Shown here one piece after another: positions 23 to 12,412 of a DNA stretch of 64,000 nt. The stretch is from Candidatus Poriferihabitans sp. GTDB lineage: Bacteria > Pseudomonadota > Gammaproteobacteria > Arenicellales > Poriferihabitantaceae. How positions within the stretch are numbered: position 1 is the stretch's first letter; every line of letters starts with the position of its first letter. The notes below the pieces were generated by a model. That model saw only the letters and a list, made by a program, of their open reading frames with translations, was not told the DNA's origin and ran no database searches. The position numbers were made by a program, and so were the translations under genes. The stretch lies in the NCBI GenBank assembly GCA_965220975.1, contig OZ244855.1, forward strand, positions 976,967 through 1,040,966, given 5' to 3'.

Positions 23-460
23 TCATGATTCTAGTCGACTTTGTCCGATTCCATAGGCAACGATTGCAGCAACAGCCAGAATCCCGGAAATCACATGGAA
101 TCGATTGAAAGGTTCTCGAAAAATAATCAGACCCACTCCGATTGATGTAGTCAGAATCGACAGAAGTGCATACACGATATAACTGGTTGCACCCTGTTGA
201 GTGTAGAGCCAGTAAAAACCAACAAAAGTGATATAGAAACCCAGTCCGCTAATCAGAATGTACCACAAGTTTTCTTGCACGTAGCTCAAGGACGCTGATC
301 CTTTGCTAATGATTGCACTTGTGAAAAACAATGAAGTGCATACGATTAATGTAACGGTCAAAAAGAGAAATGGATTCTCCGAGGTATTTGAACCTCGTTG
401 ACCATACACGAACATTGCGTTTCCAATTGCTGCAACCAGCGCAAAATAAAAGACCTTCAT
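23..460 (-). CDS. Small polytopic membrane protein, DMT/EamA-like half-size transporter (about 145 aa from the MKVFYF start; the ORF track extends to 547)
   Basis: ORF 23..547(-). Four to five hydrophobic helices: VAAIGNAMFVYG, LFLTVTLIVCTSLFF, ILISGLGFYITFVGFYWLY, LSILTTSIGVGLIIF, ISGILAVAAIVAYGI. Family assigned from overall pattern only. Confidence 0.45.
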   Translation of the reverse strand: MKVFYFALVAAIGNAMFVYGQRGSNTSENPFLFLTVTLIVCTSLFFTSAIISKGSASLSYVQENLWYILISGLGFYITFVGFYWLYTQQGATSYIVYALLSILTTSIGVGLIIFREPFNRFHVISGILAVAAIVAYGIGQSRLES

Positions 461-562
461 TGAAGTAATTCGATAGAAAAGACAATCACCGATTATAATG
501 CGGTGGTATGAAAATCCTTGCCAGTTTTCAAACAGGGTTACTGGCATTAACGAGATTTTCGT

Positions 563-1597
563 ATGTCAGTAAAATTGAAGCAGATTGAGTTGGGTAATTT
601 CTCTATGACCGTCCATTTAGAGCCTCTTGAAGGCTCCGAGAATCTTCCGGATACCGAAGTGAATGCCCAAGAGGTATTTGGCATCGATTGCAATTTGATG
701 GTTCCCGCTTTTTCCTGGCGTGACAATCATGTCCCTGAAATCGACCCGTCCTATCGGTTTAATCAAGAGGTGACGCTTGCTCTACTTGCTGGATTTTCCA
801 GCAATCGGCGTGTCATGATTCAGGGTTTTCATGGAACAGGCAAGTCATCCCATATTGAGCAAATTGCCGCTCGCTTGAACTGGCCCTGTGTGAGAGTCAA
901 TCTCGATGGTCACATCAGCCGTCTCGATCTGGTCGGTCGTGATGCCGTAGTATTGCGCGATGGCAAGCAGATTACCGAGTTTCAGGAAGGGATTGTGCCA
1001 TGGGCATTGCAACGCCCGGTTGCCCTGGTTTTCGATGAATTTGATGCCGGTCGGCCAGATGTCATGTTTGTGATACATCGAGTGCTCGAACGGGATGGAA
1101 AACTGACATTGCTTGATCAAAATCGAGTAATTACTCCACACCCGGGGTTTCGACTGTTTGCAACTGCAAACACAATTGGACTCGGCAATTTGACCGGACT
1201 CTACCATGGTACCCAATTACTGAACCAGGCGCAAATTGATCGCTGGAATATCGTAACTACACTCAACTATCTCCCCGAGCAGGAAGAGGCAGCTATCGTA
1301 ACTGGGCAAGTTGCAGAATTCGTTGCCCGCCAAGATGAAGTCCAAAAGATGGTTGCCATGGCTAATTTGTCGAGACAGGGCTTTGCAGCCGGAGATATTT
1401 CGACGGTAATGTCACCTAGAACCGTAATCACATGGGCAGAAAACGCCATTATTCTGAATGATTTTGATACTGCATTTCGCCTTACCTTTCTCAATAAATG
1501 TCATGAAGCAGAACGTTCCATTATCTCGGAGTATTACCAGCGCGTGTTTGGCTATGAAATTGAACATTCAATCGCTATCGATCTAGAAAAGCAGTGA
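563..1597 (+). CDS. cobS: CobS-like AAA+ (MoxR-class) ATPase
   Basis: 344 aa. Walker A is GFHGTGKSS, followed by [31 protein letters not shown]. Walker B is [14 protein letters not shown]. The string matches my memory of aerobic cobaltochelatase CobS homologues. Confidence 0.75.
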
Positions 1598-1610
1598 AGC
1601 AACTCTGAAA

Positions 1611-3320
1611 ATGGATGAAGCGGCCGTCATTCGCCTGGTAGAACATCACGCTGCAGCCACGATTCGGGCATTATCTGGAATTTATCAAGCAGCCTATCGC
1701 CGTCAGTTGGTGTCGATTGATGGTGAGCGCTTGTTTTTCGAGTCTCCATACCTTTTCGCTGACCCGGTTCACCATGAATTGACCCGAAATCGTGGTGCAG
1801 CCGATGCGCTATCGATGCGATTGAGGTATACGGACCAGGCACTTCACCGATCAAACAACCCCGATACGCTAATTGAAAGACTCATTTTCGATATATTGGA
1901 ACAATTGCGGTGTGAGTCTTTGGCTGATTTACGAATGACAGGCCTAATTGAAAACATGAATCAGGCCTTTGCCGCGTGGAGCATGGAATTTCGGAAAAAT
2001 GGGCATGCCGAAACCGAATTCGGACTACTGCTGTTTACCCTAATCCATGTAGTTCGCTCAAGAATACTCAATATTCCGCCTGACCGGGTAGTTGAGGGCT
2101 TGATTGAGTCGATGCGTTTTGAACTCGTCCCGCACATTGGAGCAGACTTGGCAGGTCTCAAGCAGAATCGATCAAATCAGCTCGCCTATGCAAAACATGC
2201 TCGTTCAATTGCTGCCTCTGTTTTGAAGCTTATGGAGTTGTCAGGTTTGCAATTGATCGAAAAGGAAATCGGTGCTCTTCGTGAGAAAAGGTTGTTACCG
2301 CCCGATAGTATCGGTGATGAAAATCTTGCTGAAACTGATTTTGCCGATTCGTTGTATCGAGACACGGAAGAAGACGTTCAGGAATACAGGATCTTTTGTA
2401 TCGAGTATGACCGCACTATCACAGGTGACAAACTTTATCGACTTGAACAAAGAATGAAACTACGCGAACAACTTGATCAACTGATCTCTGCCCAGTCCGT
2501 CAATTTGCCGAAACTTGCTCAACGATTGAAGATCGTATTTGGAACACCGACTCGATCGGGTTGGAATGAAGGAGTGGAAGATGGCCATATTGATGGTCGC
2601 AGAATCAGCCAGCTCATCGCGAATCCTGCCTATTCGAGAGTCTTCAAGCAGGAAAAGATCACTTTGCAAAGCAATGCCGTTGTTTCATTTTTAATCGACA
2701 ACTCTGGTTCTATGCGCCGTCAGAAATACGAAGCTTTAGCAGTACTTGTTGACGTGGTATGTCGAGCTCTTGATATGGCGGGAGTCAAAACAGAAATACT
2801 TGGCTTTTCAACAGGCGGTTGGGCTGGTGGGCAATCAATCAAAATCTGGCGAAGCAGGGGAGCTCCTCAGAACCCTGGTCGTCTAAATGATCGTCTACAC
2901 ATCATTTATAAAGATGCAGAAACAGACTGGAAGCGGGCACGACTGAATATTTCAGCCATGCTCAATCCAGCGCATTTTCGAGAAGGTCTCGATGGTGAGG
3001 CATTGCAATGGGCCTTTATGCGCTTGCGGGAACGGCCTGAGCCTCGCAAATGCTTGGTTTTTATTTCAGATGGAGCACCGATGGAAACTGCAACGAACAA
3101 CCATAATTCCCCATCCTATTTGGACAATCATCTACGCAATGTTGCAAATGCGATAGAACGAACAGGGGTTGTTGAACTAGCAGGAATCGCGACCGCATTT
3201 AGCCTTGATGATTATCTCGCAACATGGACACCAATTGATTTTTCTGGAACTCTGGATACTCGTGCATTTCATGTTCTTGAACGGATATTTGAAATCAATC
3301 GATCTGCCGAGATAAGCTGA
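1611..3320 (+). CDS. cobT: CobT-like protein with C-terminal von Willebrand A (vWA) domain
   Basis: 569 aa, starting 14 nt after cobS. The MIDAS-like motif is SFLIDNSGSM, and FISDGAPME lies near the C-terminus. The size and pairing with CobS are typical. Confidence 0.7.
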   Translation: MDEAAVIRLVEHHAAATIRALSGIYQAAYRRQLVSIDGERLFFESPYLFADPVHHELTRNRGAADALSMRLRYTDQALHRSNNPDTLIERLIFDILEQLRCESLADLRMTGLIENMNQAFAAWSMEFRKNGHAETEFGLLLFTLIHVVRSRILNIPPDRVVEGLIESMRFELVPHIGADLAGLKQNRSNQLAYAKHARSIAASVLKLMELSGLQLIEKEIGALREKRLLPPDSIGDENLAETDFADSLYRDTEEDVQEYRIFCIEYDRTITGDKLYRLEQRMKLREQLDQLISAQSVNLPKLAQRLKIVFGTPTRSGWNEGVEDGHIDGRRISQLIANPAYSRVFKQEKITLQSNAVVSFLIDNSGSMRRQKYEALAVLVDVVCRALDMAGVKTEILGFSTGGWAGGQSIKIWRSRGAPQNPGRLNDRLHIIYKDAETDWKRARLNISAMLNPAHFREGLDGEALQWAFMRLRERPEPRKCLVFISDGAPMETATNNHNSPSYLDNHLRNVANAIERTGVVELAGIATAFSLDDYLATWTPIDFSGTLDTRAFHVLERIFEINRSAEIS

Positions 3321-3323
3321 CTC

Positions 3324-3930
3324 TTACCCGTCTTGAAAAACCAGAAAACCGACGATTTCCTTGAAAGCCAATACAACATTGTTGCCGCAAAGACTGATTT
3401 TGAACAAGTGCTGATAAATTGAACCAAACATAGCCAGATTTGGCGATCCAAGTGCCCATAATTCTTGCAGCACCGATGCGGTAAACGGAAAAACGAGGTC
3501 TTTGACTTGTTTCTTATATACCAGAATTATTCCCCAGTCATGGTGTATTTGATGATGGTTATTGGCAACGCTGCAATCGCGCATCATATGGTTTTGTTGC
3601 CGAACCGTTCAACGATACGAGCGTGAATGTAGCCATAATTGGAGACCCCCTTTTACCTTCGGTCTCGATCCTGGATATCATCCATAGCATAAAGAACCTG
3701 ATACAAGCTGTTCATGAATCGCCTATATTGGCTTCCGCCTTTGTGTCATGCATCCCTGAATGCAAAATTGAATATCGATAAACGCATCGCTGATGACCGG
3801 AGCACATTATTTCAATTGTTGCGGATTTCGAGCAAAACAATTCAACGGGATGTTCGTTATCAATCCACTTGTTGATGTAATGGAACATTATAATTGCGTG
3901 CAATTTTGGTCTCTGACTAGTGCTAATCAA
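3324..3930 (-). pseudogene. Possible degraded fatty-acid hydroxylase/desaturase-like gene (broken His-box protein)
   Basis: Two minus-strand ORF pieces (3712..3930 and 3324..3587) are separated by stops and frame changes. The downstream piece has NNHHQIHH, an HxxHH-like box. The resemblance to the intact FA-hydroxylase gene at 61240..62046 is weak. Confidence 0.25.
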
Positions 3931-4142: not shown

Positions 4143-4766
4143 ATGACTAGACCTAATCTTCTATTGCTACGTTTTGCCACTCTCAATATTCTGGCGCTGT
4201 CCTTGGTTATTGTTGGTGCAATGGAAGGATGGATCAATCAGATTATTGAAACCGATGTAACCCGAATTAGCATTCTGATAGGGATAATGTTCATCATCGG
4301 GTGGGCAATATGTGCATATCGCATATATCAATGTGCTGAGGAAATGAGACAACTGTCGGCAAGCAATCTCGATTCATCCGAGATATATCAGAAATATTTT
4401 GAGATGATGAAAAACACCTCAGCCGATGCAAAAATGACCGTTTCTGAATGTCTGCGTTCCAGACTCTATTCAAGAATTAGTATAGTGCGCTTGATCGCAA
4501 ATAACCTGGTCATTTTCGGACTGATCGGCACCGTTATTGGCTTTGTTATTGCTCTCTCTGGAGTGGATGCTAAAAAGGTCGCTGATACCGCATCAATTGG
4601 CCCCATGATTACAACTCTAATCCAAGGCATGTCTGTTGCACTGTATACCACTCTGGTGGGGGCAATTCTGCATGTATGGTTAATCGTATGTTATCAGATT
4701 TTGGCTGTGGGCACAGTTAGTCTCGTGAACGCAATTATTGAATTCACCCATGTTCCTTCAGAATAG
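4143..4766 (+). CDS. MotA/TolQ/ExbB-family proton-channel protein (small, 3 TM)
   Basis: 207 aa. The C-terminal signature is NNLVIFGLIGTVIGFVIAL ... GMSVALYTTLVGAILHVW. This matches the conserved MotA_ExbB pattern (GLxGTVxG ... AL.TT..GL). Confidence 0.7.
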   Translation: MTRPNLLLLRFATLNILALSLVIVGAMEGWINQIIETDVTRISILIGIMFIIGWAICAYRIYQCAEEMRQLSASNLDSSEIYQKYFEMMKNTSADAKMTVSECLRSRLYSRISIVRLIANNLVIFGLIGTVIGFVIALSGVDAKKVADTASIGPMITTLIQGMSVALYTTLVGAILHVWLIVCYQILAVGTVSLVNAIIEFTHVPSE

Positions 4767-4792
4767 AAACAAGCGCAAAGCAACTCCCGGCA

Positions 4793-5410
4793 ATGCTAAA
4801 TCCTTACGATGACCCCACCAACCCTGGGGATACATTGTTTCGAGATGTTCTCAGTCTCGCCCTGCTTGGATTTCTTGCGGTCATTGTATTGTTGCTTCCC
4901 CACTTGGTAGTTGAGCAAGATGACAAATCTGCTGTTCTAGAGGCCGATGGCGATCTGGTGGTTCAATTGACATGGCCGTCGGAAATGAACGCTGATATGG
5001 ATCTCTGGGTTCAAGCCCCCGGAGATATAGCCGTTGGTTATTCCAGCAAAGGCGGAAAAGTCTTCAATCTATTACGTGATGACCTCGGCAGCAAGTTTGA
5101 CTTATCCAGCGTTAACCATGAAAGTGCATACAGCAGGGGATTTGCCCGAGGCGAGTATGTGGTCAATGTCCACGCCTATCGAATTGACCCAAAATATCCG
5201 CCTCCCTTTACGGTTGAAGTTCTAGTCACTACAAAAATCACAAAAGATGATCAAGCCCAAGTCAAGCCAATCGTATTTACACGGACACTAATCACTCGAC
5301 AGGGTCAAGAAATAACAGCAGCCCGTTTTCGCCTGAAAGGAAATGGGGAGATGATCGAAAACAGCATGCATAGCTTGTTCAAACCGCTTCGTCAAACAGG
5401 CGTGAAGTAA
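4793..5410 (+). CDS. Single-pass membrane protein, ExbD/TolR-like N-terminal anchor plus extracytoplasmic beta-rich domain
   Basis: 205 aa. The N-terminus FRDVLSLALLGFLAVIVLLLPHLV has an Asp at the cytoplasmic edge of the TM, as in ExbD/TolR/MotB. It is followed by DLVVQLTWPSEMNADMDLWVQAPGD. Starts 27 nt after the MotA-like gene. Confidence 0.45.
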   Translation: MLNPYDDPTNPGDTLFRDVLSLALLGFLAVIVLLLPHLVVEQDDKSAVLEADGDLVVQLTWPSEMNADMDLWVQAPGDIAVGYSSKGGKVFNLLRDDLGSKFDLSSVNHESAYSRGFARGEYVVNVHAYRIDPKYPPPFTVEVLVTTKITKDDQAQVKPIVFTRTLITRQGQEITAARFRLKGNGEMIENSMHSLFKPLRQTGVK

Positions 5411-5415
5411 AACGA

Positions 5416-5928
5416 ATGGAAAACATTCCGATACTCTACCTGTTGCACATATGCTTGGCTGGACTACTCGTTGCCATTGCGATCTGGGCAAGGCGCTCAA
5501 TTGGACCTAGAGTTGCATCGATTGCATTACTGTTTGCATTCGTGTTGGTCGGATATGTTTCTCTGGTGAGTTTGTTGGGGCGACCTCAACCGATTGAGTA
5601 TGCATCTTTTGAAGATTCTGAAGAACATGCAACGGTCATTGCAGCAAGTATTGAAGAAGGCAACGCGATATATCTATGGCTTCGTGTTCCGGGAACCAGC
5701 CAACCCCGATACTATCGCATGGATTGGGATCATGAGGTTGCAACATCGCTGAAGCGAGCCATTGATCAGTCCTTGCGTAACAATACTTCAATCCAGTTGG
5801 AACTGGAATATGAGTCTTCTCTTGAAACTCGTCAAATGCCTCAGTTTTACAATTTGCCACAACCACGTCTCCCCGTGAAACCGCCACCAGAAGTATTCGA
5901 ATACCGAAACCCTGACAGCCCCATATGA
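5416..5928 (+). CDS. Two-TM membrane protein with soluble C-terminal domain, unknown function
   Basis: 170 aa, starting 6 nt after the previous stop. TM segments are ILYLLHICLAGLLVAIAIWA and VASIALLFAFVLVGYVSLVSLL. No motif recognised. Confidence 0.4.
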   Translation: MENIPILYLLHICLAGLLVAIAIWARRSIGPRVASIALLFAFVLVGYVSLVSLLGRPQPIEYASFEDSEEHATVIAASIEEGNAIYLWLRVPGTSQPRYYRMDWDHEVATSLKRAIDQSLRNNTSIQLELEYESSLETRQMPQFYNLPQPRLPVKPPPEVFEYRNPDSPI

Positions 5929-6007: not shown

Positions 6008-6910
6008 TTGAACGCTTTTCGCTCTAACATCACCGCAATGCCCGATTTGATACGGGGGATCTTGTGGATGATCTTTTCTGGATTCATATTTGTACTTGTT
6101 GGTGTACTGATCAAGTTGATGGAATCCGGATTACCGGCTATTCAAAGCGCATTTCTTCGCTATGTGTTCGGTTTGATCATTATTCTTCCCCTGTACCGAA
6201 GGTTTCACTGGAATAGCTTAACAAGACCGATTCTGGGTCTTTATTCGCTACGAGCCATGTTCCATGGATTCGCAGTGATGTTGTGGTTTTTTGCGATGGC
6301 AACCATTCCGCTGGCTGAGGTTACAGCGATTGCCTACAGCCTGCCGATTTATACTACAATCGGTGCGGCGCTGGTGTTCAAGGAGAAAATACGCATTCGA
6401 AGAGTCATGGCAGTAGTTATCGGATTTGCTGGAACATTAATTATTCTCCGTCCGGGTTTGGTGGAAATTTCATTAGGCTCACTGGCACAAGTTGCAGCTG
6501 CAATCGGTTTTGCTGGCTCGTTTCTGATTGCGAAAAAGCTGGTTTCTGCAGAAACTCCGACCAATATCCTGTTCATGTTGACGGCAGGATGCGGACTTGC
6601 ATTAATGCCTGCTGCACTAGCAGTTTGGGTTACTCCATCTTTGATCGATACAATCATTCTGGTTAGCATCGCGTCTCTGGCAACTCTTGGTCATCATGCA
6701 ATAACGAAAGCCCTGATTGCAGCCCCGCTTACGGCAACTCAGCCGTTTATATTTGTCCAGATGATCTGGGCAATTGGGTTTGGCTATATCCTGTTCAATG
6801 AAACGCCAGATGTATGGGTTGTTGTTGGCGCATTTATCATCATCGCCTCAACCACCTATCTCGCTCATCGAGAAATTGTAGCGCAGAAAAAATATGCACT
6901 TCATGAATGA
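6008..6910 (+). CDS. EamA/RhaT-type DMT-superfamily transporter (10 TM)
   Basis: 300 aa with two repeated five-TM halves, typical of EamA. The track start at 6008 is TTG; an alternative ATG lies at 6038. Confidence 0.65.
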   Translation: MNAFRSNITAMPDLIRGILWMIFSGFIFVLVGVLIKLMESGLPAIQSAFLRYVFGLIIILPLYRRFHWNSLTRPILGLYSLRAMFHGFAVMLWFFAMATIPLAEVTAIAYSLPIYTTIGAALVFKEKIRIRRVMAVVIGFAGTLIILRPGLVEISLGSLAQVAAAIGFAGSFLIAKKLVSAETPTNILFMLTAGCGLALMPAALAVWVTPSLIDTIILVSIASLATLGHHAITKALIAAPLTATQPFIFVQMIWAIGFGYILFNETPDVWVVVGAFIIIASTTYLAHREIVAQKKYALHE

Positions 6911-10162: not shown

Positions 10163-10294
10163 TTAGATCCAGACCATGCGCATACCGCGACTTCCCGAAT
10201 AGGAGCGGTTGAATGGCACACATGGATTTATGCGAATCCGGTTCATAATTCGATTGCGTCCATCTGAATCACGCCTACAAAATCACGATTGATC

Positions 10295-12412
10295 ATGCGC
10301 TCAAAAATCAATCTGAGCAAGCTCCGTTACAACTATATTCCAGATCACATTCTGGGTGAAATCCTGACCAAACGGTGGGCAGATAACATCGTTCCAATTA
10401 CAGTGTTTGTGATTACTGTCGTGATATTAACAAACCTGATTCCGGGATTTCTGTCACCGCAAAGCTTGAGCGATGCTGGTCGGCAAATGGGGGAATTTCT
10501 GATTATCGTATGCGGCGTCTCTATCGTAATGATTGCCGGGGGTATTGACTTAAGCGTTGGTTCAATCTATGCGATTTGTGCATTAATTGCAGTAGCAGTA
10601 GTAAATCTTCTGGAATGGCCCGTTCCCGTAGCACTAATGATTTCCGTTCTAATCGGTGCCTTGTTTGGAGCAGTAAATGGATACTTAATCGGTTATCTAA
10701 AGCTTCGAGCCTTCCTGACTACCCTTATAACTTTCGTTATCGGGCGGGCCATCTACGACATTGCGCTGGATTATCTTGGAACTCCCATTCAGCTCTCATG
10801 GGTTGACTCTGCACTTTGGGATTTTATCGGCGATGGAACCGTCGGCCTGATTCCTGTCAGCTTTCTCTTTGCTGTAGTGGTGCTTGTGATTGCTCACATT
10901 TTTATCAGCCGCTCTCGACGAGGCTGGCATATCAGTGCAATTGGGGGTTCACGTCGTTCTGCATTCAATACCGGGATCGATGTAAAGAGAGTTGTTTGTT
11001 CAACCTACATCATTTCTGGCGCCTGTTGCGGCATTGCTGGCTTTCTGTTTGGAGCGCGGTTAAACGGAACGGGCCCCGGCACTGGAATCGGAATGGAAAT
11101 CCTGGTTCTTACTGCTTGTGTGGTTGGCGGCATCAGTCTGGGAGGAGGACGTGGCTCCATTGCGAAAGGCGTCCTTGGCGGCTTGATTGTTTTGACCATC
11201 AATAACAGTCTTATACGGATGGGCTATCACAGTGGTACCAATCAGATGGTTCTTGGAATTATGCTGACTCTCGCCGTGATTCTGGATATCCGCTGGCTTA
11301 GAAATCGCCATAAGGTTCTGGATAAGGTGTATGTTGCACCGGTTTATACATCCATGAATGAGCCCATCTCGGCTCTTCCCAAGGACCAGACAGCCTATGC
11401 GCTGAACTCTCGATTATCCGAAACGGAATTGATCGGAGCAGGTGAAGTTGAAGGACCAGAGGATGTTATTCTGGATAACGATGACCACCTGTATTGCGGG
11501 TCGAGACATGGTGATATTGTGCGGTTCTTCGCCCCGGATTACAAGGAATGGGAAGTCTTTGTTCATATTGGAGGATTTCCTCTCGGCCTTGCCTTTGATC
11601 AGCATCAAACCTTAATCATTTGTGTCGGTGCGATGGGGCTGTATTCGGTCACGCCGGACCGCAATATCGAAAGACTGAGCGCAGAAACCAATCGATCCTA
11701 TCTCTCGATCATTGATGATGCTCGATTACGAGACCCTAACGATCTGGACATCGGTTCGGATGGAAAAATTTACTTTACGGATTCAACCACTCGCTATGAT
11801 GCACATGAATGGGCGATTGACAGTGTCGAAAACCGCCCAACCGGCCGGGTATTGGTCTACGACCCGAAAACCAGGAAAACTCGAACTCTTCTGCGACGAC
11901 TGAATTATCCCAACGGGGTATGCATGGCTCATGATGGAGAATCATTTTTCTTTGCCGAATCTTGGGAGTGTCGGGTCAATCGATACTGGTATCGTGGCGC
12001 ACGAAAAGGCCAACTCGCAACAGTGATCCGAGATATGCCTGGATATCCAGACAATATTAATCGCGCATCTGACGGCTGCTATTGGATGGCTTGGCTTGGG
12101 ATGCGTACTCCCACTTATGACTTAATGCTAAAAATGCCCGGGACTCGGAGACGAATGACGCGTCAATTACCTCAGGATGACTGGCTATTTCCAAATATCA
12201 ATACTGGAGGAATCGTAAAGTTTGATGAACAAGGAAACATTCTTGAAGTTCTCGGTGATCTGGGGGGCAAGCATCATCCTATGGTTACCTCAATGCGCGA
12301 ACATAAAGGATATCTGTATGTTGGTGGCATCCTAAACAATCGAATCGGCAAATACAAACTGCATAAAGCGGATCAAAGCTGGACCAGTAATGAATCATAT
12401 TGGGGTAACTGA
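10295..12412 (+). CDS. Fusion protein: ribose-type ABC permease (N-terminal about 340 aa) plus strictosidine-synthase-like/SMP-30-like beta-propeller (C-terminal about 350 aa)
   Basis: 707-aa ORF. The permease part has AGGIDLSVGSIYA and VVGGISLGGGRGS. The C-terminal part has GKIYFTDSTTRYD, GRVLVYDPKTRKTRTLL, NYPNGVCMAHDG, MPGYPDNINRASDGCYWMAW. These are Str_synth-type motifs recalled from memory. Confidence 0.7.
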   Translation: MRSKINLSKLRYNYIPDHILGEILTKRWADNIVPITVFVITVVILTNLIPGFLSPQSLSDAGRQMGEFLIIVCGVSIVMIAGGIDLSVGSIYAICALIAVAVVNLLEWPVPVALMISVLIGALFGAVNGYLIGYLKLRAFLTTLITFVIGRAIYDIALDYLGTPIQLSWVDSALWDFIGDGTVGLIPVSFLFAVVVLVIAHIFISRSRRGWHISAIGGSRRSAFNTGIDVKRVVCSTYIISGACCGIAGFLFGARLNGTGPGTGIGMEILVLTACVVGGISLGGGRGSIAKGVLGGLIVLTINNSLIRMGYHSGTNQMVLGIMLTLAVILDIRWLRNRHKVLDKVYVAPVYTSMNEPISALPKDQTAYALNSRLSETELIGAGEVEGPEDVILDNDDHLYCGSRHGDIVRFFAPDYKEWEVFVHIGGFPLGLAFDQHQTLIICVGAMGLYSVTPDRNIERLSAETNRSYLSIIDDARLRDPNDLDIGSDGKIYFTDSTTRYDAHEWAIDSVENRPTGRVLVYDPKTRKTRTLLRRLNYPNGVCMAHDGESFFFAESWECRVNRYWYRGARKGQLATVIRDMPGYPDNINRASDGCYWMAWLGMRTPTYDLMLKMPGTRRRMTRQLPQDDWLFPNINTGGIVKFDEQGNILEVLGDLGGKHHPMVTSMREHKGYLYVGGILNNRIGKYKLHKADQSWTSNESYWGN

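Follow-up and report, generated by a model that had tools for sequence, protein, structure and literature searches.

Three adjacent genes at positions 4143-5928 of a 64,000-nt stretch of contig OZ244855.1 from Candidatus Poriferihabitans sp. (the whole stretch is hereafter called the window) on balance probably constitute a single operon for a minimal ion-driven membrane motor of the MotA/TolQ/ExbB (5:2) class with a periplasmic output. Gene 1 (g1; 4143..4766, + strand) encodes a 207-amino acid (aa) subunit of the MotA/TolQ/ExbB type, with four transmembrane (TM) helices and a match to Pfam PF01618. Gene 2 (g2; 4793..5410, + strand) encodes a 205-aa single-pass protein in which a TolR/ExbD-like "transpore" TM helix is followed by a predicted periplasmic beta-sandwich, and gene 3 (g3; 5416..5928, + strand) a 170-aa protein made of a 2-TM hairpin, a small putative periplasmic domain and a Pro-rich tail. 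The intergenic spacers measure 26 nt (g1/g2) and 5 nt (g2/g3). The reading as a proton-driven motor of the 5:2 type is based on the threonine pair of g1, the Asp-bearing helix of g2 in the partner position, the tight co-inheritance of the genes and the apparent dispensability of the cytoplasmic domain.

The locus had been singled out in an initial annotation, made by a model from the DNA alone, whose three open reading frames (ORFs), spacing and quoted peptide motifs are all present as described. The ORFs were considered real genes because identical products are called on two public metagenome contigs (0.27 and 3.2 Mb) matching the window and because each has a large set of homologues: 3074 for g1; at least 1133 word-index matches (all labelled "hypothetical") and 1897 cluster-50 representatives for g2; and 49 word-index matches for g3, beyond which many further copies were found by their position in the loci.

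The three encoded proteins

On the Pfam MotA_ExbB model, g1 scores 38.9 bits for a gathering cut-off of 22.9 (E 8.3e-10), and the same family is carried by all 120 g1 homologues among the matches listed. Alignment of a profile of 27 g1 relatives to E. coli TolQ/ExbB using hhalign gave a probability of 81% (E 1.2e-5), in a register that places T130 of g1 (GLIGTV) on T145 of TolQ (GLFGTVWG) and T170 (ALYTTLVG) on T178 (ALIATAIG). In known motors, the two threonines at these positions point towards the Asp of the partner; located in the last two TM helices (T145/T178 in TolQ, T148/T181 in ExbB), they are represented in g1 by T130 and T170. The corresponding motifs, GLIGTVIGF in TM3 (aa 126-134, including T130; 4518..4544, + strand) and GMSVALYTTLVG in TM4 (aa 162-173, including T170; 4626..4661, + strand), were delimited on a family alignment (A4) in which G126, G129, G133, A166, T170 and G173 are invariant and T130 is conserved in at least 90% of the sequences.

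By inspection, g1 has four hydrophobic segments in a MotA-like layout, with a cytoplasmic loop of about 55 aa between TM2 and TM3 and no C-terminal tail, and at 207 aa it is, as had been remarked, smaller than E. coli TolQ (230 aa) or ExbB (244 aa). Its scores on the specific models for PomA, MotP, ExbB2, TolQ and ZorA (NCBIfam/PADLOC) are far below every cut-off, so that it was considered a family member outside the named subfamilies. The best of these specific profiles are ZorA models (E 4e-8; 21.8 bits for a cut-off of 100, and 30.4 bits in PADLOC), which match the channel core only, and the best matches among the sequences of the PDB are MotA and PomA (E 0.036-0.5). These comparisons show g1 to be a genuine member of the MotA/TolQ/ExbB family that has the two pore-lining threonines, and the assignment made initially withstood the profile searches.

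The protein encoded by g2 begins with a TM helix (aa 12-38 in the AlphaFold2 model; 4826..4906, + strand) that bears a TxFRDV motif and an Asp, D18 (4844-4846), near its cytoplasmic end, which is the arrangement found in ExbD and TolR and the one described in the initial annotation. Three alignments were used for this protein, comprising 32 close homologues (A1), 135 distant members (A3) and the phage copies (A6). Residues T14, F16, R17, D18 and V19 are invariant in the first, and D18 is conserved in at least 90% of the sequences of the two others. The sole hhalign match between g2 and TolR/ExbD covers the TM helix and sets D18 on D23 of TolR and D25 of ExbD.

In the AlphaFold2 model (mean predicted local distance difference test score, pLDDT, 79.8), the helix is followed by an eight-strand beta-sandwich (aa 53-181; 4949..5335, + strand), mostly at pLDDT 85-95 and predicted to be periplasmic. 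The mean column identity of this ectodomain is 64% in the close homologues, and W61, D68, D70, W72, R95, D96, E110 and N125, together with an LLRDDLG loop, are invariant in the close, distant and phage alignments; the invariant acidic cluster is a possible site for Ca2+ or another ligand. A profile search over every cluster-50 representative retrieved the 1897 g2 proteins mentioned above, the best 150 of which are mostly 170-260 aa long; the family is large and its members differ little in length.

No family of Pfam, NCBIfam or PADLOC and no PDB sequence matches g2. For ExbD/TolR (PF02472), there is no Pfam or NCBIfam match at E<=1, and none at E<=10 for the 32 family members; the alpha/beta periplasmic domain of TolR/ExbD is replaced by an all-beta sandwich in the model, and hhalign aligns nothing past the TM helix, which agrees with the earlier remark that the periplasmic part does not resemble ExbD. 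Neither OmpA/MotB nor a plug followed by an OmpA-like peptidoglycan-binding domain was found in g2 with Pfam and NCBIfam, a weak MotB_plug match (E 0.0087) occurring in 1 of the 135 distant members. The model thus describes g2 as a well-folded, conserved beta-sandwich that is predicted to be unrelated to TolR, ExbD or OmpA-like domains.

The resemblance to a DUF2135-like module pointed out in the initial annotation was partly borne out. Weak matches to DUF2135 (PF09906), for which we know of no function, occur in 15 of the 135 distant members (best E 1.3e-4; the next commonest family appears 4 times), which makes the resemblance real, but it is confined to a 27-residue GEYxVNVHxY hairpin and stays below the Pfam cut-off: the g2 of the window has no match, and the family consensus reaches 12.3 bits for a cut-off of 22, over positions 2-28 of a 48-position model. 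A profile search of PDB sequences also related g2 to the PPC-like jelly roll of the protease 3afg, at an insignificant E of 0.5 and with a motif-wise sensible alignment.

The third protein, g3, has no family match in Pfam, NCBIfam or PADLOC. Its AlphaFold2 model (pLDDT 73) contains a two-helix TM hairpin (aa 4-55) and a beta-beta-beta-alpha-beta-beta domain (aa 71-148), in line with its first description as an unrecognisable 2-TM protein. Conserved features (alignments A2 and A8) are a basic inter-helix loop, LLGxPKP after TM2, EGxAIYLWL, PRxYxLPW and a C-terminal F144..PQPxxPxK155. Because the inter-helix loop (W-A-R-R...R) is positively charged, the C-terminal domain would lie in the periplasm. 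The TonB_C and TolA families of Pfam and NCBIfam do not match g3, which has two TM helices and whose Pro-rich segment is a short C-terminal tail, not a linker. The hypothesis of a TolR/ExbD-like g3 was rejected, hhalign finding nothing.

Distribution in bacteria and phages

A scan of one genome per species showed that at least 593 species encode a relative of g2, and the best 80 of these loci were examined. They belong to Arenicellales, Poriferihabitaceae and many Alphaproteobacteria, including the cultured genera Azospirillum, Skermanella and Arenibaculum; the genomes closest to the window are Arenicellales and sponge-associated metagenome-assembled genomes (MAGs) of Gammaproteobacteria. The conservation of the trio as a unit, on which the initial annotation had made its reading depend, is evident: the order g1-g2-g3 on one strand was found in 68 of the 71 bacterial loci with enough flanking sequence, when counted by stop codons (a count by longest-ORF starts, 59/73, is an under-count). 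The three exceptions are a second-copy g2-g3 pair, a locus whose g3 is not intact and another in which the g2 ORF is long. Where g2 and g3 meet, they most often overlap by 4 nt (30 loci), which suggests that the two genes may be translationally coupled.

The products of g1, g2 and g3 are 72-85% identical to their Arenicellales orthologues in conserved synteny, compared with 76-79% for the flanking CobT-like protein and 80-89% for EamA. The trio thus diverges like its neighbours, a sign that it has been inherited vertically under purifying selection. None of the families in the flanks keeps a fixed position across the bacterial loci, and the idea of a fourth conserved gene was rejected. Among the closest relatives, the stop codon of g1 overlaps the start of g2, and g1 has 9-15 additional C-terminal residues; the g1 of the window ends early, leaving a 26-nt gap (4767-4792) without an obvious Shine-Dalgarno sequence before g2. 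Copy number varies: two alphaproteobacterial MAGs (L059, 5316-11970; L060, 4083-6597) have tandem extra copies, in arrangements such as g1-g2-g3-g2... and g1-g2-g3-g2, and in several other assemblies two trios lie apart, each on its own contig.

Phages carry the module as well, a fact missing from the initial annotation. A tblastn search of GenBank phages with g2 identified nine rhizobiophages, including the temperate Rhizobium (Sinorhizobium) phage 16-3, in which p040 corresponds to g2 (42% identity, E 8e-26), p038 is a relative of g1 (E 7e-8 with a g1 hidden Markov model, HMM, and a weak Pfam MotA_ExbB match) and p042 a relative of g3. The latter was detected with E 6e-6 using a clean HMM built from alignment A2, and with E 3e-11 using a first iterated HMM that contained off-frame ORFs overlapping g2 in GC-rich genomes. 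A scan of IMG/VR with the alignment of close g2 homologues retrieved 30 viral contigs (which may include some prophage or misassigned sequence), in most of which g2 is immediately preceded by g1 and followed by a relative of g3; altogether, the g1-g2-g3 order is present in most of 34 viral loci.

Phage g2 proteins retain the Asp and all the invariant residues of the ectodomain. Phage g1 proteins are reduced to 130-190 aa, their TM2 being joined almost directly to TM3 without a cytoplasmic loop (A4), and this loop would therefore be dispensable. The 16-3-like phages have, in this order, an endolysin, two small envelope proteins (of which one is lipoprotein-like), a trypsin-like protease, the trio and an SbcD-like exonuclease. 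A trypsin-like serine protease immediately precedes the trio in 14 of the 34 viral loci (including L091, 4148-7036, L103-L105 and L110-L111) and in none of the 80 bacterial loci; it belongs to Trypsin_2, one group combining Trypsin_2 with PDZ in a DegP/HtrA-like architecture. Elsewhere among the phages, genes for replication and repair surround the trio. Metagenomic representatives of the deep branches are found on contigs that clearly belong to phages: one of these encodes DNA polymerase A, HNH endonucleases, an Enc34 ssDNA-binding protein and a phage lysozyme, and another has a muramidase context. A crude, midpoint-rooted neighbour-joining sketch is suggestive of viral copies scattered in deep branches, with the cellular clade of the window as one compact sub-branch. 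The small gene that follows the trio in phage 16-3 (p043; L091, 7149-7514) has a sub-threshold match to a DarT1-associated NADAR antitoxin (25 vs 27 bits).

Proposed function, neighbouring genes and alternative explanations

As a motor, the module would work as follows. Gene 1 would form a pentameric ring into which a g2 dimer would insert its Asp-bearing helices, and proton flow through the Asp/Thr site would turn or shift g2 relative to g1. This movement would carry the beta-sandwich, which may bind Ca2+ through the invariant acidic cluster; the moving part would be periplasmic, consisting of the g2 sandwich and probably of g3. The latter would dock on the ring by its TM hairpin, while its periplasmic domain and Pro-rich tail would engage components of the cell wall or outer membrane, making it a partner or transducer. 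Candidate targets are peptidoglycan, an outer-membrane component or an incoming phage apparatus. In the lineage of the window, where the chromosomal locus is fixed and slowly evolving, the module seems to behave like a stably inherited envelope function, and phages would most likely use it to alter the host envelope during infection. As a tentative extension, which we regard as possible without expecting it, the trio would be the cellular branch of a large and so far unrecognised phage-encoded family of minimal proton motors, domesticated by Alpha- and Gammaproteobacteria, with which phages would remodel or protect the envelope of the host (superinfection exclusion, counter-defence against machines of the Tol/Ton/Zorya type, lysis control).

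The initial annotation had proposed an ion-driven motor with a novel output domain and had named results that would speak against it, among them membership of g2 or g3 in known families. None of these was obtained in the searches as run: neither protein falls in the ExbD/TolR, TonB or MotB families of Pfam, NCBIfam and PADLOC or matches them among PDB sequences. The PHROGs families yielded a single weak match (phrog_1735, E 1e-3). Several observations nevertheless weigh against the motor. The alignment of g2 with TolR/ExbD spans 24 columns at E 0.012 and a probability of 3.5%, and is statistically unconvincing; Foldseek finds no significant neighbour of the g2 model in PDB or BFVD, nor any significant neighbour of the g3 model there. 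The SHLS/His motif of TonB/TolA is missing from g3, whose His13 is not conserved. The 5:2 stoichiometry, the contact between g1 and g2 and the contact with g3 are what we infer from homology and synteny. Moreover, the trio is not strictly obligate, since a Poriferihabitaceae locus (L017, the same as L003; 5995-7133) has a g2-g3 pair without an adjacent g1, and since a phage subgroup (L104, L105, L110, L111) has other small ORFs directly after g2, two of its members having only a weak g3-like ORF, located upstream. An esterase gene lies upstream of the L017 pair, and a different contig of this genome (L014) bears a complete trio.

In the window, CobS-like and CobT-like genes (563-3320, + strand) lie 0.8 kb upstream of g1. 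Their scores are below the NCBIfam equivalog cut-offs (517 vs 559 bits and 282 vs 759 bits, respectively), and this MoxR/vWA pair is possibly something other than a canonical aerobic cobaltochelatase; beside it are ferrochelatase and CbiX genes that are transcribed divergently, just outside the window (L001, 1892-3497). Most of the spacer between CobT and g1 is filled by an alpha/beta hydrolase pseudogene (3333..3791, + strand; tblastn/blastn), which is outside the module. The intact 283-aa orthologue of L005, a member of the BD-FAE/Abhydrolase_3 family that is intact in the closest Arenicellales relatives, aligns to it by tblastn in three pieces and in different frames (a frameshift), and a 146-bp deletion detected by blastn takes out the GHSAGG nucleophile region. 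The decayed gene had been reported initially as antisense; it is on the + strand. In agreement with the initial annotation, no flagellar gene lies nearby, the flanks contain no Zorya partner, and no TonB_C domain was detected. A full-length EamA gene (6008-6910) comes after the trio, and an EamA-like half-transporter ORF of 174 aa at the left edge of the window (23-547, - strand) scores 27.4 bits for a Pfam cut-off of 28.2. Further downstream, a 707-aa ORF (10289-12412, + strand) fuses a BPD_transp_2 permease domain to an SSL_N/SGL/strictosidine-synthase-like beta-propeller, an unusual transporter-enzyme fusion, and is followed by a second Str_synth-like gene.

The CobS/CobT neighbourhood, which the initial annotation had pointed out, raises the question of a Ton-like role, in which the trio would energise outer-membrane uptake connected with cobalt or cobalamin metabolism and g3 would be a TonB analogue. 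The proximity of the pair, the ferrochelatase and CbiX genes just beyond it and the TonB-like Pro-rich segment of g3 would fit such a role. We nevertheless regard it as very improbable, and as essentially excluded by synteny: among the 80 loci, CobS/CobT adjoin the trio only in the five closest Arenicellales relatives (L005-L007 and L009; g2 identity at least 79.5%) and are absent from the remaining loci, the flanks share no conserved family, neither a TonB-dependent receptor nor a TonB_C domain was detected, the two clusters have a decayed gene between them, and the phage copies do not have such neighbours. The adjacency therefore stands as described, limited to close relatives, and the functional link does not. 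It is less improbable, though still quite unlikely, that g1 and g2 alone constitute the motor and that g3 is a conserved neighbour with an independent role, for example as a membrane-anchored periplasmic binding protein. Some phage loci do have no recognisable g3 after g2, or have small ORFs between the two, and g3 is the least conserved of the three (31-37% identity where g2 has 45-50%); but the same 68 of 71 bacterial loci have g3 after g2, the stop codon of one usually overlapping the start codon of the other, as do most phage loci in the order of the two genes, and the pair persists without g1 in L017.

The main competitor of the motor reading is a conflict system, in which g1 and g2 would form a channel for superinfection exclusion or anti-phage defence and the chromosomal copies would be domesticated phage modules. 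It could operate by blocking DNA entry at the envelope, by poisoning the Tol/Ton/Zorya-type motors of the host or by a triggered proton leak (abortive infection, lysis timing). We consider it unlikely. It would explain the phage copies, the module being carried by temperate rhizobiophages (p038/p040/p042 of 16-3) and many viral contigs, and it is consistent with the deep viral branches around a compact cellular clade in the crude tree, with the location of the module right after the lysis cassette and a periplasmic trypsin-like protease in 16-3-like phages and among early replication genes in others, with the ZorA profiles as best specific matches of g1 (E 4e-8), and with the several copies present in some genomes (L059, L060). 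However, no PADLOC model matches g2 or g3, the ZorA scores of g1 are far below the family cut-offs, and there is no effector domain. Furthermore, the Arenicellales module has a constant location on the chromosome, with metabolic and transport genes around it, and diverges at the rate of its neighbours, which is unlike a mobile defence island, and the highly conserved g2 ectodomain does not have the pattern of an arms-race surface.

Comparison with known systems

Ion-driven 5:2 motors power flagella, Ton uptake, Tol-Pal envelope maintenance, gliding, type 9 secretion and Zorya defence, and each newly found partner protein has revealed a new use of the same engine. The module described here would rank among the smallest versions of such motors, the phage ring being little beyond four TM helices, and its output domain belongs to no catalogued family. 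It is common, g2 being encoded by at least 593 species and falling into about 1900 clusters at the 50% identity level; its carriage by the genetically tractable Sinorhizobium phage 16-3 would make a phage's own proton motor directly testable, and its chromosomal form is present in cultured hosts such as Azospirillum and Skermanella. A literature search gave no match for DUF2135/PF09906 or for phage-borne MotA/ExbB modules, and no paper describing the trio was found.

The likeness to TolQ-TolR and ExbB-ExbD lies in g1, a member of the same Pfam family in which the two threonines around the Asp of TolR/ExbD are retained, and in g2, which has the same gene position, the same N-in single-pass topology and a T-x-F-x-D-V motif comparable to the T-P-F/L-x-D-V of ExbD/TolR. 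A third membrane protein, g3, is encoded next, as are TolA and TonB. Unlike TolQ/ExbB, however, g1 has four TM helices in a MotA-like arrangement and almost no cytoplasmic domain; g2 would have a periplasmic beta-sandwich of about 130 aa in place of the alpha/beta fold of TolR/ExbD, without a PF02472 match; and g3 has two TM helices, neither the SHLS/His motif nor the C-terminal domain of TonB/TolA being present. MotA-MotB and PomA-PomB share with the module the 4-TM topology of g1, whose best PDB matches they provide, and the Asp at the cytoplasmic end of the partner helix, but the torque-generating cytoplasmic domain, the plug/linker and the OmpA-like domain are lacking, as are flagellar genes nearby. 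Zorya is comparable in that ZorA-ZorB is a MotAB-type motor outside motility and that ZorA models are the best specific profiles for g1; the latter, however, does not have the long ZorA tail and scores far below the cut-offs, g2 and g3 have no PADLOC match, and the ZorC/D or ZorE/F/G partners are not found in the flanks.

As regards the output domain, g2 shares with DUF2135 the "GEYxVNVHxY...V.V" hairpin, all scores being sub-threshold, and its motif "W....DxDLWV.aPgd.pVgYs" resembles the C-terminal jelly roll of the Tk-SP protease (3afg; E 0.5), whereas its invariant LLRDDLG loop has no counterpart in DUF2135 or PPC domains. TolQ-like pentamers have been described to pair with non-TolR "transpore-helix" (TPH) partners bearing a conserved Asp, the TPH-vWA proteins (PMC12204202, 2025). 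These systems resemble the present one by the combination of a TolQ/MotA-like gene with a partner in which an Asp-bearing N-terminal helix precedes an unrelated periplasmic domain, and differ from it in that this domain is a vWA and not a small beta-sandwich, and in that the trio has a third, 2-TM protein and is also phage-borne. Non-TolR partners are thus already established (PMC12204202), and the present module is set apart by its beta-sandwich partner, a third subunit with two TM helices, an extremely reduced ring and its carriage by phages.

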